Virus record (IMG/VR): IMGVR_UViG_3300017774_006254
Coordinates: 32,001-96,000 of that record
DNA length: 64,000 bases
Reading direction: 5' to 3' (one strand)
Source: a virus
A program made the translations under genes and the position numbers. Numbering within the stretch: the first letter of the stretch is position 1; each line of letters starts with the position of its first letter. A model generated the notes under the pieces. That model was not told the DNA's origin. It saw only the letters and a program-made list of their open reading frames with translations, and ran no database searches. Positions 20,461-52,505 of the stretch are shown here, in pieces.

Positions 20461-20500
20461 CACGCGCGAGGGCGCGCGAGGGCGCGCGAGGGCGCGCGAG
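20461..20500. repeat. Tandem 10-bp repeat (GGCGCGCGAG x3 plus one variant)
   Basis: Read directly: CACGCGCGAG GGCGCGCGAG GGCGCGCGAG GGCGCGCGAG. Confidence 0.85.
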
Positions 20501-20706
20501 CGATGGCGAGCCTAGCCTTCACGCGTCAAGGTCGCGCGAGGGACGCGCGAAGTGTCGGGAAAGGTCGCGCGGCGGCGAAACAGCCCCCAGGGGGGCGCCC
20601 GGAAGGGGCGCCCGAAGGCCTCCGAAGGCCGAAAGCGGCGGCCTATGGGCCAGCGGCGGCCAAAAGTCGGGGGATAGTGCCCCCGAAAATAATCGTTTGG
20701 CATCGC

Positions 20707-26278: not shown

Positions 26279-26351
26279 GTCCCCATAGCTCAGCGGATAG
26301 AGCAGGTGCTTTCTAAGCACTTGGCCGGGGGTTCGAATCCCTCTGGGGACG
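26279..26351 (+). tRNA. tRNA-Arg (TCT)
   Basis: Cloverleaf: acceptor GTCCCCA/TGGGGAC, D arm GCTC/GAGC, anticodon arm GGTGC-TT-TCT-AA-GCACT, T loop TTCGAAT; no encoded CCA. Confidence 0.92.
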
Positions 26352-42078: not shown

Positions 42079-42706
42079 AATGCCTCCCATCTACACGTTC
42101 ATCGGAACCAAGTTTCGCTTTCTCGACGCGGACCCGAAGGACGTCTCGCTCATCGACATCGCCCAGTCGCTTGCCATGACGTGCCGCTACAACGGCCACA
42201 GCCTCCGCCACACGTCAACGGCAGCTCATTCCGTCCGCGTTGCAGAGCGAGCGCTCCAGGAAACCGGGGTACCCGGTATCGCCTGGCTCGCGCTCATGCA
42301 CGACGCTCCCGAGGCGTACGTCGGAGACATTCCCACGCCACTCAAGCACGCGATGCGCATCGTGTGTGGGGAAAAGAAGAGCCCATTCGACACCATCGAA
42401 GACGCGGTCACCGCTGTCGTCGCGCAGGCGCTTGGACTCGACGAAAAGATCACCGGAAGATACTCGCTCAGGGAAGCCTGGGCCATTGTCAACGGTCTCG
42501 ACTACGAAGACTTCATCGCCGAAGCCAGTGTTGAGTGTCGTCAGCCAAAACGCCTGGTCCCTGAAAAAGCGATCTACCCCACCGGCCACACCGCCAAGCA
42601 AGCGCGAGCGCTGTGGCTACGTACGGCTGCCAAGTACGCCCCCACGACCGAGTTGCTTGTTCGCGTCCGAAGTGCCCAAGCGTACTTCCGAGGAGCGCAT
42701 CAATGA
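42062..42706 (+). CDS. HD-domain phosphohydrolase (YfbR-like 5'-deoxynucleotidase)
   Basis: DIAQSLA..CRYNGH, AHSV, LMHDAPEAYVGDIPTPLK. Confidence 0.85.
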   Translation: MTKIPEMPPIYTFIGTKFRFLDADPKDVSLIDIAQSLAMTCRYNGHSLRHTSTAAHSVRVAERALQETGVPGIAWLALMHDAPEAYVGDIPTPLKHAMRIVCGEKKSPFDTIEDAVTAVVAQALGLDEKITGRYSLREAWAIVNGLDYEDFIAEASVECRQPKRLVPEKAIYPTGHTAKQARALWLRTAAKYAPTTELLVRVRSAQAYFRGAHQ

Positions 42707-44487: not shown

Positions 44488-44529
44488 TGGGCGCACGTGC
44501 ACGAGCATGGGGGACGTCTCCTGCCTGGT

Positions 44530-44685
44530 GGTAGTGCGGCAAGTGCAATCGCGAGCGCGATCACAAGAACTTCGCCAAAGCAGGACAGCCAGTTCCCACC
44601 GGCCGTATCAAAGGAAAAGTCACGAGTCCGCACGTGCAGTACAGTCGTGACCATCCGACGTGATCGCAGCACTTACACACTTCTG
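44530..44685 (+). ncRNA. Putative structured RNA immediately downstream of the Cas12m-like gene
   Basis: Nested complementarity AAGTGC/GCACTT, GCGATCAC/GTGATCGC and GTCACGA/TCGTGAC. Confidence 0.4.
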
Positions 44686-44775
44686 CGCGCACCTTTCATT
44701 CGTTCGGATGTTCCCCGACGAAGCAGTCAAGTCAGGTCTGTTTTCCGAAATGCAACTAGATCGCTGGAGAAAACG

Positions 44776-45021
44776 ATGAACACAACAAGACCATACGTGG
44801 TGAAGTCCGGAGACACACTGTCTCGAATTGCCACGGACCATGGCTTGTCTTGGCGTGCTCTCTACGACTCACAAGAGAACGCCGACTTTCGAGCGAAACG
44901 TCCGGACCCTCAGAAAATCTTCGTTGGCGACGTCATCAACATTCCAGAGAAGAATGTAGCTCTCCGCAGGCTCGGGACGGTTGCCGAGCTGGACCCGTTG
45001 TGGTCGCCGATCAAGGTCTAA
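44776..45021 (+). CDS. LysM-domain protein
   Basis: YVVKSGDTLSRIA...DPQKIFVGDVINIP; RBS GGAG. Confidence 0.85.
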   Translation: MNTTRPYVVKSGDTLSRIATDHGLSWRALYDSQENADFRAKRPDPQKIFVGDVINIPEKNVALRRLGTVAELDPLWSPIKV

Positions 45022-45035
45022 CCGCAGTACACGAA

Positions 45036-45288
45036 CTCGACGCGTCGAGGCATTGGTTGGTGGACAAGTGGCGCTCGCGTCCGAGGCGAGACAGATCCAA
45101 ACCGCTTGGAGTATCCAAGACCCGAGGACAAGCTTTGAAGGCCGCTCGGCGCCCAGCCGAGACCGTAACGGAGTTTCGGCGACAAAGACGAGACGAGATC
45201 ACCGTCCGCAAAAGCAGCTCGACGCTCCAAGTCGAGACCTGGATGCTCGCTGTGCAAGCGCAATGGCATCTCGGCGCCCAGCCGAGAC
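45036..45288 (+). CRISPR. Degenerate CRISPR-like mini-array of hairpin-AC units
   Basis: Seven hairpins of the form CTYG...CRAG-AC; CTCGGCGCCCAGCCGAGAC occurs exactly twice (45145, 45270); intervening sequences are unique. Confidence 0.5.
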
Positions 45289-45339
45289 GAAAGGATCGCA
45301 CACGAATGCGCCTTGACTGGCCAACTGTTACACTTGGCC

Positions 45340-48537: not shown

Positions 48538-49383
48538 ATGAGCCCAGTCTTCTTGATCGACATCTCCTCGTACCTGCATCGCGCAATGCACGTGATTCAC
48601 GGAAAGCTTGCCTCTGAAGCCGATCCGTCAGACATCTCGTTCACCGTTCACGCAGCGAACATGCTCGCCAACACCATGTTTCGACTTCACATCGAAAGAA
48701 TGGCCGTGGTGTTCGACTCGACCGAGCCATCAGCTCGGTGCCAAGTCTACCCGCAGTACAAAGCCGACAGGAAGCCTCACACTCCTGTGTTCGCGGCCCA
48801 GATGCCTCGGTTCATGGCAGCCCTGGCTGACGTCGGAGTAAGCGTCTTCGAAGAACCTACCTTCGAAGCCGACGATATCATCGCGACTCTGGTAGGAGAT
48901 GAAAGAGTTCCGTACTCGATCGTGTCACACGACAAAGACCTGCTTGCTCTTGTCGACGATGCGTCAGAGGTGGCCGTCTACAACCCAACATCTGACAAGT
49001 GGCACCGCATGGATGACATCTTCTCCAAACTGGGAGTGTTTCCATGGCAGTTGCATGACTACATGGGACTAGTCGGAGACACGTCAGATGGAATCCCAGG
49101 CGTTCCTGGGATTGGAGCCAAGACCGCTTCAGCTCTCGTGGTGAAGTACGAAACGCTAGAACGTATCTACAGCGCGGAATGTCGCGAGCTTGTAGAAGAT
49201 GATCTGTCCAAGAAGCAGTTCTCTTCGCTTATTGAGAGCGAGGAAGTGGCTTTCTTGTCCAGGAGTCTAGCCAAGCCAATCATCTGCCCCGAGTTGATTA
49301 TGGTTGGGCATGGGCCCCTCTCTGCGCCGAGTCCCGACAGGATACGAACGGCCGTACAAGACTACGAGAGGAGGAATCGCTGA
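48538..49383 (+). CDS. 5'-3' exonuclease (PolA N-terminal / FEN family)
   Basis: LIDISS, VVFD, YKADR, FEADDII, SHDKDL, LVGDTSDGIPGVPGIGAKTA. Confidence 0.92.
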   Translation: MSPVFLIDISSYLHRAMHVIHGKLASEADPSDISFTVHAANMLANTMFRLHIERMAVVFDSTEPSARCQVYPQYKADRKPHTPVFAAQMPRFMAALADVGVSVFEEPTFEADDIIATLVGDERVPYSIVSHDKDLLALVDDASEVAVYNPTSDKWHRMDDIFSKLGVFPWQLHDYMGLVGDTSDGIPGVPGIGAKTASALVVKYETLERIYSAECRELVEDDLSKKQFSSLIESEEVAFLSRSLAKPIICPELIMVGHGPLSAPSPDRIRTAVQDYERRNR

Positions 49384-52300
49384 TGCCTTTGGTGCGGACG
49401 ACCCACAACTTCGAACTTCCGATGACGCCTCGGAGCCCAGACGTTCGTACCTGGACGCCTCAGATGGGCACGCAAGACCTCGTGTACTCGCTTGCTGTTG
49501 GTGCTTGTGCTCCGACAGCCGAGACACAACTTCAGCGGCGCGCTGTCGAGGCCGTGAGCGTTCCATTGGCCAAGTCAGGAGGCGGCTCTGTCGTCACGAT
49601 GAGACCATACCAGAACGAGGCCATCGAAGCCGTTTCAGCGGCCTGGAAGAGTGGTTCGAAGTCGCCATTGATTGTCTTGCCGACGGCTTGCCACCGTGCC
49701 GGACAAGGCGTCCTCATGATGGATGGAACCGTTAGAAACGTAGAAGACGTGCAAGTGGGAGATGTCCTGCTCGGGCCAGACTCCAGGCCTCGAAATGTCC
49801 TCAAGACGCACCGCGGGTTCGGTCAGATGTTTGAAGTCATCCCTGTAAAAGGAAAGCCCTTTGTCGTGAACGGCGAACACGTGCTCACGCTGTACCGAAC
49901 CCCCCAGAAGCCCAACGCTAAGTACCCAAGTCAAAGATCGGCCATCGTTGACGTGACGGTGAATGATGTACTGACCAAGTCAAAGACATGGCGTCACATT
50001 CACAAACTGATCCGAGCGAGCGATGTAGAGTTTTCCGTCAGAGAGGCCCCGGTCATTCCTCCGTACTTCCTCGGCCTTTACATCGCAGACGGCTCCATGG
50101 CACAGCCCAATCAAGTTGCAGTGTCCAAGCCGGACCCGGAGGTAAGAGCTGCCTGCATGGAGCTTGCGGAAAGCTGGGGACTCAACATGCGAACGGACGT
50201 CGGTGGGAGTGGTTGCCCTTCGCATCACCTCTCAGGACTCACGTCTCCAGGAAAGACTCGCGGAGACAACCATATCCTGACGGAACTTCGCAAGCTTGGC
50301 CTCATGAACATTCCCTCCGAGGAACGCTTCATACCAGACAGTTACAAGTTCGGGTCGATTGCGGTGAGAAGAGAGCTTCTGTCCGGCTTCTTAGACGGAG
50401 ACGGACATCTCCATCGAACTGACTACGACGTCATTACGAAATCGAAGCGACTGTCCGATGACATCGTCTTCGTAGCTCGGAGCCTGGGGCTTGCTTCGTA
50501 TTCCGCTCCTTGCGTGAAGGGGTGCCAGAACGGGTTCATCGGGAATTACTTTCGCGTGACCGTATCCGGGGAAACCTCAAAACTGAAACTGAGGATACCG
50601 CGCAAGCAAGCGCCTCTCAGAGCCCAGAAGAAGAATCCTCTCGTTGCTGGATTCAGCGTGAGAAGACTTGAAGAGGAGCCGTTCTTCGGCTTCACACTTG
50701 ACTCAGATCACCGATACCTGCTTGACGACTTCACGATCACGCACAATTCGGGAAAGACGATCATCTCCGCCGAAATCATGGCTCGCACGTACGCGGGCTC
50801 TGGAGAGAAGAGCCTGTTTATTGCGCATCGTGAGGAACTGCTCACTCAAACGGTCGACAAGGTAAGGCTAGTGAGTCCCAACACTCGCGTTGGGTTGGTG
50901 CAGGGGAAGATTGCAGAGTTCGGCCGCGATGTGACCGTCGCCTCGATTCAAACGGTCGGCCACAGTAGCAAGAAGAAGCTGCGTGAACTCATCGACGGCG
51001 GACCGTACAGAACCATGATCATCGATGAGTGTCATCACGCTACGGGCAAACAGTATCGCGATGTCATCTCCGCGTTGATGGAAGCGAACCCCTCGATGCT
51101 GATCATGGGAATGACAGCAACACCCGGCCGGTCCGATGGCCTAGCTCTCGATGCCGTGTTCGACTCGGTGGCATTCGAGAAGGACATCTTCTCGATGATC
51201 CGCGAGGGATGGCTCGTTCCTCCCGTTGGCTTCGCGCAGAAGATCGATGTCGACCTCGACAAGGTTGCAACAGGTAACGGTGACTACGTATTGAGTCAGC
51301 TGTCGAAATTGATGAACACGCCCAAGGTCAACCGCGCAGTTGTCGAAGCGTGGCAGACGCATGGGCTCGACCGGAAATTCATCGCCTTTGCTTGCGACGT
51401 CGCTCACGCAAAAGCCCTAGCGCAAGAGTTCAACGACAGTGGATACCCCGCAGCGGCCGTCGACGGGAAGATGAAGAAGACGGAACGCAAGAGCATACTC
51501 ACTGCATTCCGCGAAGGCGCATTGAAAATCCTCGTGAACTGCAACATCTTGATCGAGGGGTACGACGATCCAAGCGCCGAAGGAGTCCTCTTCGCGCGCC
51601 CGACACAGAGCCAGGGCCTGCACATCCAGTCGCTCGGAAGAGGACTTCGCCTGTTCCCTGGGAAGACAGAGTGCCTGGTGATCGACTGCGTTGGAAACAG
51701 CGCGAAGCACCGCCCAGTGCAGCTCGCTTCCCTCGTCGGCTTTGATCCGCAAAGGAAGTACAAGGGCTTCGCCGGGTTCGGAAACGAGGAAGAGGAAGAA
51801 ACTGAGAAGCCAGCCGAAGTAGGCGTCGACGATGCTCGACTTGGTCAAGCGTCAGAACTTGGATTCGGATTCGCTCCGCTGAAAAGCACGTACCAGTGGA
51901 GAGAAACTTCTTTGGGGTGGATCATCCAGATACCGAAGATCGGCTACTACCTAGTCGCATGGAGCGACAAGACCAAGGTGATGGCCACGATTCGCTTCTA
52001 TGACCAAAGAAAAGGGCGCAAAACAGACAAGCCTCGCGAGGTGACCCGAATGCCGATCGAGTTCGACATGGCCTATGGGCTTGTTGAAGGAGAACTTGAC
52101 CGAATGTTCCGCGCCAAAGACTTGCGACGCGAGGAGAAGAAGGACGAGACAGGCGCAGACCTCGTCTCGTTCGTCCCGCTCGATGATGGTCTGGATGAAG
52201 ACCTGTCCGTCAGAGAAGAGCAGATGCTCAAGGACGCCGAGTGGCGAAACAAGCCCAAAACAGAGAAGCAGCGAGAGTGCCTCGAATCGCTGGGCGTGAA

Positions 52301-52505
52301 GATGAAGACGATGCCCGAGCTTGCTGGAGAAGCCAGCGACCTAATCACCATTATGCGCGTTGAGAAAGAGCTGAAGATGCGCGTGCCCGCGACGCTGAAG
52401 CAGCTGAACTTCCTTCGCTTCCACGGTATCCCGTTCTCCGAAGACATCACCAAGGGCCAGGCCGCCAAACACATCTGGCTTCATCGAAAGGCGACTGAGG
52501 TATGA
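49383..52505 (+). CDS. SF2 (DExH) helicase containing an intein
   Basis: RPYQ, LPTA|intein|SGKT, IIDECHH, MTATP, EGYD, QSLGRGLR. Confidence 0.92.
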   Translation: MPLVRTTHNFELPMTPRSPDVRTWTPQMGTQDLVYSLAVGACAPTAETQLQRRAVEAVSVPLAKSGGGSVVTMRPYQNEAIEAVSAAWKSGSKSPLIVLPTACHRAGQGVLMMDGTVRNVEDVQVGDVLLGPDSRPRNVLKTHRGFGQMFEVIPVKGKPFVVNGEHVLTLYRTPQKPNAKYPSQRSAIVDVTVNDVLTKSKTWRHIHKLIRASDVEFSVREAPVIPPYFLGLYIADGSMAQPNQVAVSKPDPEVRAACMELAESWGLNMRTDVGGSGCPSHHLSGLTSPGKTRGDNHILTELRKLGLMNIPSEERFIPDSYKFGSIAVRRELLSGFLDGDGHLHRTDYDVITKSKRLSDDIVFVARSLGLASYSAPCVKGCQNGFIGNYFRVTVSGETSKLKLRIPRKQAPLRAQKKNPLVAGFSVRRLEEEPFFGFTLDSDHRYLLDDFTITHNSGKTIISAEIMARTYAGSGEKSLFIAHREELLTQTVDKVRLVSPNTRVGLVQGKIAEFGRDVTVASIQTVGHSSKKKLRELIDGGPYRTMIIDECHHATGKQYRDVISALMEANPSMLIMGMTATPGRSDGLALDAVFDSVAFEKDIFSMIREGWLVPPVGFAQKIDVDLDKVATGNGDYVLSQLSKLMNTPKVNRAVVEAWQTHGLDRKFIAFACDVAHAKALAQEFNDSGYPAAAVDGKMKKTERKSILTAFREGALKILVNCNILIEGYDDPSAEGVLFARPTQSQGLHIQSLGRGLRLFPGKTECLVIDCVGNSAKHRPVQLASLVGFDPQRKYKGFAGFGNEEEEETEKPAEVGVDDARLGQASELGFGFAPLKSTYQWRETSLGWIIQIPKIGYYLVAWSDKTKVMATIRFYDQRKGRKTDKPREVTRMPIEFDMAYGLVEGELDRMFRAKDLRREEKKDETGADLVSFVPLDDGLDEDLSVREEQMLKDAEWRNKPKTEKQRECLESLGVKMKTMPELAGEASDLITIMRVEKELKMRVPATLKQLNFLRFHGIPFSEDITKGQAAKHIWLHRKATEV
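49689..50747 (+). mobile_element. Intein with LAGLIDADG homing endonuclease (353 aa)
   Basis: Starts CHRAGQ and ends ITHN before Ser; LAGLIDADG-like motifs FLGLYIADG and LLSGFLDGDG. Confidence 0.92.

Follow-up and report, generated by a model that had tools for sequence, protein, structure and literature searches.

The question raised by this locus is what is specified by a row of seven small hairpins of mutually different sequence, lying in a 320-nt stretch without genes in the genome of a phage. The window, that is, the whole stretch of 64,000 nt that was analysed, corresponds to positions 32001-96000 of one virus record of 161,502 bp, which has direct terminal repeats and is rated complete; the GC content is 59%. 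The hairpin region, which we call array A, is embedded in a plus-strand block of nucleotide-metabolism and replication genes. The gene order is ThyX, an HD phosphatase, a 594-aa ORF, a LysM gene, the 320-nt stretch with the hairpins of array A and then, downstream, genes of no known family, a 5'-3' exonuclease and an intein-containing helicase. The helicase (49383-52505, 1040 aa, ResIII/Helicase_C) is split by an intein that carries a homing-endonuclease domain (Hom_end_hint, Hom_end, LAGLIDADG), and the same arrangement is present in the two related phages used for comparison below (L003 and L004). Elsewhere in the window, a tRNA-Arg gene (anticodon TCT, 26279-26351), its only tRNA, is located where the ORFs switch from the minus to the plus strand, and the 10-nt unit CGCGCGAGGG occurs three times in tandem at 20463-20502. 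An Rfam scan of the window returned nothing beyond the tRNA.

Judged by homology, the 594-aa ORF clearly encodes a Cas12m protein. A search of the PDB gave nearly full-length matches to Cas12m (23vw_A, E 3.9e-81), Cas12m2 (8hhl, E 4.5e-32) and UnCas12m4a (E 2.2e-22), and Pfam detected a Cas12f1-like TNB (zinc-finger) domain; cas12m is the only TNB-domain gene in the complete genome. If the upstream GTG at 42613 were the start codon, the protein would have 624 aa. An alignment of 30 sequences shows conservation of the RuvC residues D305, E467 and D555, and since this D-E-D triad is intact, the phage protein could in principle cut DNA. All Cas12m proteins tested so far, including those with the D-E-D triad, bind DNA without cutting it. 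Searches of the complete genome gave no match to Cas1 or Cas2 and, at E<=0.1, none to the Nop domain of Tas proteins; a protein scan of viral contigs found no relatives of this Cas12m. The LysM gene that follows cas12m has syntenic counterparts of 85-89 aa in both L003 and L004. The 290 nt from the cas12m stop to the LysM ATG (44497-44777) are open in the LysM frame, which yields a 174-aa ORF from a GTG at 44497; in both relatives separate ORFs of 52 and 90 aa are called in this region. None of these ORFs matched a known family.

Array A and cas12m share a strand, and the 549 nt that separate the cas12m stop from the array contain one small gene. An earlier note on this DNA had described seven hairpins at 45036-45288, separated by 22, 12, 23, 11, 23 and 31 nt, and both the positions and the distances were confirmed. 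Six of the units end in AC and unit 1 in GC; four are strong and three weak. The hexamer CGAGAC occurs five times within 200 nt at array A, as compared to 37 times on the same strand of the entire 64 kb, and is absent from the other strand at this site. In addition, the density of perfect 5-bp hairpins followed by AC on the plus strand of the whole genome peaks here. The cluster of hairpins is far beyond what chance would give. Fourteen units of this phage that have equal length were used to build a covariance model (R1) in which the hairpin is the sole specified structure; local E values range from 1e-9 to 1e-12 for units 4, 6 and 7, and those of the other units are listed in Table 1. Near-identical direct repeats of ~36 nt with spacers of ~30-38 nt are not the case here, as the units differ from each other and recur at periods of 29-50 nt. 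A generic direct-repeat search of the window detected one two-copy 24-nt family at this site and no canonical CRISPR array anywhere, which makes it plausible that standard CRISPR finders would miss the array, as had been predicted. A terminator scan gave no plus-strand site in array A, each stem being followed by AC and non-T sequence, and no sigma-70-like promoter was detected upstream. Folding of the whole array A region as RNA was no better than that of shuffled sequence (z -1.1), a result that is uninformative.

Table 1. Coordinates of cas12m, of the elements of array A and of the second array. Positions refer to the window unless stated otherwise; E values of units are from model R1.
Feature	Position	Strand	Basis or remark
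cas12m gene, 594 aa	42703..44487	+	PDB sequence search, Pfam, RuvC alignment
Small LysM-domain gene	44778..45021	+	Pfam LysM, E 7e-9; between cas12m and array A
Unit 1, weak palindromic hairpin ending in GC	45036..45051	+	Hairpin part alone fits model, E 0.26; absent in L004
Guide room 1, 17 nt	45052..45068	+	Unit 1 to pseudoknot strand of unit 2
Unit 2 handle (pseudoknot strand, linker, stem-loop, AC)	45069..45092	+	Model match 45064-45092, E 9e-4 locally
Short gap, 7 nt, too short for a guide	45093..45099	+	
Unit 3 handle, weak; CTTGGA/TCCAAG stem, 3-nt loop	45100..45121	+	E 0.13
Guide room 3, 18 nt	45122..45139	+	Kept in both relatives; one change in first 17 nt in L004
Unit 4 handle, GGC-cg-CTCGGC-GCCca-GCCGAG-AC	45140..45163	+	Model match 45135-45163, E 1.7e-9 genome-wide; identical in both relatives
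Short gap, 6 nt	45164..45169	+	
Unit 5 handle, degenerate variant ...AAGACGAGAC	45170..45194	+	E 0.08
Guide room 5, 18 nt	45195..45212	+	2-3 positions differ among the three phages
Unit 6 handle, AGC-ag-CTCGAC-GCTccaa-GTCGAG-AC	45213..45238	+	Model match 45208-45238, E 7.6e-7 genome-wide
Guide room 6, 26 nt	45239..45264	+	Length varies in relatives via internal indels
Unit 7 handle	45265..45288	+	Model match 45260-45288, E 1.3e-9 genome-wide
Putative last guide, first 17 nt after last handle	45289..45305	+	0-1 change in both relatives; 17-nt length taken from published Cas12m work
6-bp hairpin GGCCAA...TTGGCC	45319..45339	+	Hairpin scan; just 5' of ATG of next gene (45343)
Second array, ~30-33 Cas12m-type handles	Genome 143,682-146,051 (L001:4683-7052), outside window	-	Motif scan and R1

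Alignment of 34 units, taken from both arrays of the phage, revealed a second helix next to the hairpin. A unit consists of a 3-nt strand, a 2-nt linker and a stem of 5-6 bp with a loop that opens in the complement of the 3-nt strand, followed by AC. The three nucleotides located 5 to 3 nt 5' of the stem are complementary to the first three of the loop and form a pseudoknot with them. Its innermost pair (8-17) is C-G in 20 units, U-A in 12, U-G in 2 and unpaired in none, and the outer pair (6-19) is G-C in 15, A-U in 7 and G-U in 3. When the partners are slid by 1-3 columns, pairing falls from 94% to 21-40%, and the observed covariation score was reached by none of 500 shuffles. In the hairpin stem 96% of the cells are paired and both-side changes are found in four of the six pairs, in agreement with the proposal in the earlier note that the stems covary between units. 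Since R1 encodes no pseudoknot pairing, the covariation of the pseudoknot is support from outside the model. The sequences of the handles have drifted, then, and their pairing has been kept; no fixed sequence from the 5' end of the canonical 36-nt repeat is retained in the phage units. The excess of G-U over A-C cells (12 against 5) fits an RNA transcribed from the given strand. Unit periods are distributed evenly over the three reading-frame phases (12/10/10), which argues against a protein-coding repeat.

The same note had likened the stem followed by AC to the 3' handle of Cas12m repeats, and this agrees with the crRNAs of Cas12m2 (PMC10442227) and PmCas12m as well as with the repeats beside homologous cas12m genes. 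The Cas12m2 crRNA has a 6-bp helix of C(-22)-C(-17) with G(-8)-G(-3) as well as a pair of G(-23) and A(-2), and its guide follows C(-1) (PMC10442227). The PmCas12m crRNA has pairing of G(-28)-C(-26) with C(-17)-G(-15) and of C(-23)-C(-20) with G(-6)-G(-3). The predicted unit fold matches the topology of these solved structures.

Because the handle starts ~5 nt 5' of the hairpin, with the 3-nt strand pairing to the start of the loop, the gaps between hairpins overstate the space that is available for a guide. We therefore define guide room as the distance from AC to the pseudoknot strand of the next unit. The gaps had been taken as spacers; as hairpin distances they are right, but the real guide room in array A is 17, 7, 18, 6, 18 and 26 nt. 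Values of 15-19 nt make up 14 of the 32 in the second array, with a mode of 17-18, and in the second array of a relative 9 of 21 values are 16-19 nt. For published Cas12m proteins, the heteroduplex is 17 bp, the optimal guide has 17 nt and processing takes place at guide positions 17-18. The space after AC, mostly 17-18 nt, thus equals the length of the Cas12m heteroduplex and agrees with the trimming site, and since this spacing equals the published guide length, the arrays are packed as tightly as the guide allows. The last 4-5 nt of each guide room contain a semi-conserved CAA motif from the repeat, and so the freely variable part may be just 13-14 nt. Units 3 and 5 lie only 6-7 nt past the preceding handle, which leaves those preceding handles without a useful guide.

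The relation between these units and cas12m was examined with R1 on other contigs. The earlier note had proposed a covariance model across homologous loci and had expected such hairpins next to homologous effectors, and R1 indeed matches repeats downstream of cas12m homologues. On 22 other contigs (173 kb) with homologues 25-43% identical to the phage protein, 22 of 22 matches at E<0.1 are located just 3' of cas12m on the same strand; among them are canonical arrays of 36-nt repeats, one of which has 11 identical copies at a period of 71-75 nt. Repeats beside homologous cas12m genes end in G-CTCRNN...NNYGAG-AC. For example, the Rctr197k virus has a Cas12m of 34% identity with an annotated CRISPR array directly after the gene, and its 36-nt repeat ends in G-CTCAGA-(9 nt)-TCTGAG-AC. 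The sequence upstream of unit 7, GCAATGGCA, is the same as in the canonical repeats of L017 and L019-L021. Closer homologues, with Cas12m of 46-53% identity, were tested at E<0.05: in L005, L006 and L007 only 2 of 24 matches fall outside the arrays downstream of cas12m, and in L078 and L079 most matches lie in one such array. Since a model built from this phage alone finds the repeats beside other cas12m genes, the phage units are homologues of the 3' part of the V-M repeat. The nearest Cas12m clade shares the packing seen in this phage, with unit periods of 40-50 nt in L079, save one interval of 84 nt, 35-43 nt in L078 and 31-48 nt in L005. Along the array L007:6936-7929, beside a 46%-identical Cas12m, the stem changes from TGCAGC/GCTGCA through CGCGAC/GTCGCG to CTCCGC/GCGGAG, and the period shrinks from 72 nt to 49-61 nt; this array looks like an intermediate between the canonical and the compact form.

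Applied to the complete genome, R1 gave 34 matches at E<0.05, all of them in two arrays and on the strand of the adjacent genes, with the best match outside both arrays at E 0.097. Three of these matches are in array A (a fourth there has E 0.14) and about thirty in a second array, which lies 66 kb from array A and cas12m. Together the two arrays hold roughly 35-40 guides, and the genome has no adaptation genes. Three stretches of 190-290 nt in the second array are free of units, and near L001 4625-4660 the array ends at a palindrome with a T-run behind it. It includes a 72-aa ORF (L001:5604-5822, minus strand) flanked by two near-identical units, each of which is followed by A-A-G/A-TGGAACGG; a related phage, L047, has a called 72-aa gene (L047:7265-7483) at a similar spot in its own array. 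These ORFs and other small ORFs in and around the second array belong to no Pfam or PHROG family. Around L001 5600-6200 three guide segments share their first 11 nt, AAGTGGAACGG, and then diverge, and a fourth starts with AAATGGAACGG; the shared starts could reflect related targets or a recent duplication of units. Of the 33 guides in this array, three begin exactly with ATG and three more have ATG in the first three positions, where by a rough estimate about one is expected, which may hint at targets located at gene starts.

Array A is kept in syntenic position in two phages with Cas12m proteins 89% and 86% identical to that of the present phage. Unit 1, which L004 lacks, may be a decayed unit or an unrelated hairpin following lysM. 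In L003, unit 3 and the preceding gap are deleted, so that units 2 and 3 are fused, and an extra unit with its guide is present. Unit 2 of the present phage has a G-G mismatch at the top of the stem; the fused L003 unit mends it with a proper C-G and has A-U in place of G-U in the pseudoknot. Unit 7 of L003 shows a double compensatory change, from CTCGGC/GCCGAG to CTCAGC/GCTGAG. The degenerate unit 5, a variant type with ~6 further occurrences in the second array, corresponds to a proper 5-bp hairpin in L004. Between the relatives loops vary and stems stay, as is the case for unit 6. Several indels in array A are not multiples of three, which argues against coding. Such differences are of the kind that would be expected of an RNA array under selection. 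The second array shows another pattern: the 89% relative has 22 units in it, and only about 8 of the 33 guide segments of the present phage recur there at no more than one mismatch; a more distant phage that shares its flanking gene has no array at that place. By this comparison the second array has evidently turned over most of its guides, whereas array A is conserved. The description of the hairpins as a fixed cassette thus holds for array A but not for the second array.

We conclude that the segment 45036-45288 is probably a type V-M CRISPR-like guide array in a compact, degenerate form, the effector of which is the Cas12m encoded by the phage. By analogy with the orthologous systems, array A would be co-transcribed with cas12m and lysM, and Cas12m would cut the transcript into RNAs of ~45 nt, each composed of a handle and a guide. 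Where two handles are separated by a mere 6-7 nt, the RNA produced would lack a usable guide. The resulting complexes are predicted to bind complementary double-stranded DNA beside a PAM and to block transcription or replication, probably without cutting.

Targets of the guides were searched for in the phage itself, in related loci and in large sequence collections. Forty guides compared to the phage genome (seed-anchored exact and best 17-mer matches) performed equal to shuffled controls. Self-targeting or self-regulation is accordingly rejected at this level of complementarity, and the suggestion that short guides repress the phage's own promoters is not supported, as none of the guides fits the phage genome better than the shuffled controls. 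Comparison with ~135 kb of related loci gave no match of this phage's guides beyond chance, and the guides of the relatives likewise miss this phage. Exact 17-mer scans of IMG/VR with seven guides gave 0, 0, 1, 4, 2 and 4 matches among those listed; they were taken as chance, as the contigs, of 31-66% GC, are not related to the phage and the scattered matches have neither a handle nor a flanking motif or type of gene in common. For the last guide, a 20-mer had at least 10 matches in five independent loci of the JGI metagenomes, which were also taken as chance since none has a handle and the two that were examined are inside ORFs with Calx-beta and GDSL-lipase domains. The second array as BLAST query against 5 MAGs with cas12m homologues and 301 Myxococcota genomes gave noise in a weak search that scored two candidates per genome. 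An isolated handle-like 24-mer in a myxobacterial contig of 72% GC was rejected, there being no phage genes around it. No protospacer was found in these searches, so that no PAM could be derived. Since the phage itself is not targeted, the guides are presumably directed against the host or against competing mobile elements.

A different explanation would be that the hairpins are unused leftovers of a canonical CRISPR array in decay. Three weak units, two gaps of 6-7 nt and irregular spacing would fit such a relic, as would the lack of targets found and of adaptation genes. However, both helices are held by compensatory changes, not only across the 34 units but also between orthologous units of related phages, six loci retain the modal spacing of 17-18 nt, and compact arrays are present in all six examined loci with a Cas12m more than 50% identical. 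We therefore regard decay as unlikely. Still less probable is a role as RNA decoys, i.e. RNA anti-CRISPRs of the solitary-repeat type that soak up a Cas12m or related effector of the host. RNA anti-CRISPRs in the form of repeat units are known from phages (review PMC11656645), and some handle pairs of the present array leave no room for a guide. Against this, the phage's own matching Cas12m adjoins the array, most units leave exactly the guide length of Cas12m, and between related phages the guides differ and the handles stay, a change for which a decoy has no need.

Very improbable, and slightly more so than decoys, is that the units are Cas12m-dependent RNA processing sites at which long transcripts are cut, e.g. 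for freeing small ORFs, instead of guiding to DNA. The position of array A inside an operon and the long unit-free stretches of the second array, one of which holds the 72-aa ORF between duplicated units, could be explained in this way, as could the similarly placed gene in L047; most units, however, are 17-18 nt apart, without genes between them. Least probable of all are elements unrelated to CRISPR (terminators, REP-like palindromes, operator sites of a DNA-binding protein or a TIGR-Tas array), since, even though short GC-rich palindromes are common in phage intergenic DNA and TIGR arrays also keep structure over sequence (10.64898/2026.09.09.750476), the stems are not followed by T-runs or associated with a plus-strand terminator-like site in array A, the motif is confined to two arrays instead of being dispersed and follows cas12m in unrelated contigs, the pseudoknot and the G-U pairs point to RNA of this strand, and there is no Nop/Tas gene.

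If the two arrays indeed supply guides to Cas12m, a further step is conceivable, which we put forward tentatively. The arrays may form a library of ~40 guides of 17-18 nt which, without adaptation genes, changes by gain, loss or replacement of whole units from one close relative to another and, in the course of infection, serves for multiplexed, non-cutting silencing of host genes or rival elements, the diversity of the handles reducing recombination between units. In nature, such a library would parallel the non-repetitive guide arrays that have been engineered and would involve guide renewal without Cas1-Cas2. That a phage without Cas1-Cas2 combines a small conserved array with one of 30 units that changes fast allows the question of guide renewal without adaptation to be asked, and if the host were identified, the ~40 guides would reveal what the phage silences. 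The guide-array interpretation would further mean that a CRISPR array can persist with only the fold of the repeat RNA and a minimal guide length. Since finders that depend on repeat identity miss such arrays, type V systems of phages may be under-counted. A handle of 24-29 nt with a guide of 17-18 nt, in units with non-identical handles, may also serve as a template for compact, recombination-resistant multiplex repression arrays based on Cas12m.

Among known systems, the CRISPR mini-arrays and solitary repeat units of viruses are similar in being phage-borne repeats without adaptation genes. They copy the repeat of the host, need the Cas proteins of the host and have 1-2 spacers, usually against related viruses, whereas the phage described here has its own effector, about 40 units and no match to the relatives tested. 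TIGR-Tas systems also occur in phages, keep structure over sequence and are missed by CRISPR finders; unlike these, the present phage has no Tas (Nop-domain) gene, and the fold of its units is that of a Cas12m crRNA. TldR, reportedly a small RuvC-fold, RNA-guided transcription repressor of the TnpB lineage (Wiegand et al. 2024), is similar in using short, genome-encoded guides which are not acquired and in a presumed action by binding DNA rather than cutting it. TldR differs in using one long omega-type RNA with a single guide, as compared to tens of short crRNA-type units and an intact RuvC triad here.

The closest relationship is with type V-M, of which systems are known on plasmids and in some prophages. 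In September 2026, a phage-encoded Cas12m with a canonical array was reported for myxophage MV-1 (bioRxiv 10.64898/2026.09.14.751636). Similar to the present phage, MV-1 has a Cas12m of ~610 aa with RuvC residues D305/E463/D555, no cas1, cas2 or cas4, and a search for protospacers found none (bioRxiv 10.64898/2026.09.14.751636); by its description it differs in that the arrays described here lack a consensus repeat usable by repeat-based tools. The canonical V-M systems (MmCas12m, Cas12m2, GoCas12m and PmCas12m) share with the phage locus a homologous effector, the same two crRNA helices with a terminal AC and the absence of adaptation genes, and the published systems need no tracrRNA. They have identical repeats of ~36 nt, spacers of ~35 nt and a period of ~72 nt, as in L002, L022 and L017, whereas the repeats of this phage are reduced to a handle of 24-29 nt, differ from each other, recur at periods of 29-50 nt and leave a guide room of 17-18 nt, and a second large array is found 66 kb from the effector. 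No V-M arrays combining structure-only repeats, handle-only repeats, a guide room of 17-18 nt and a distant large array were found in the literature searched, and this combination of four features marks the phage locus as a variant of type V-M, not as a new system.
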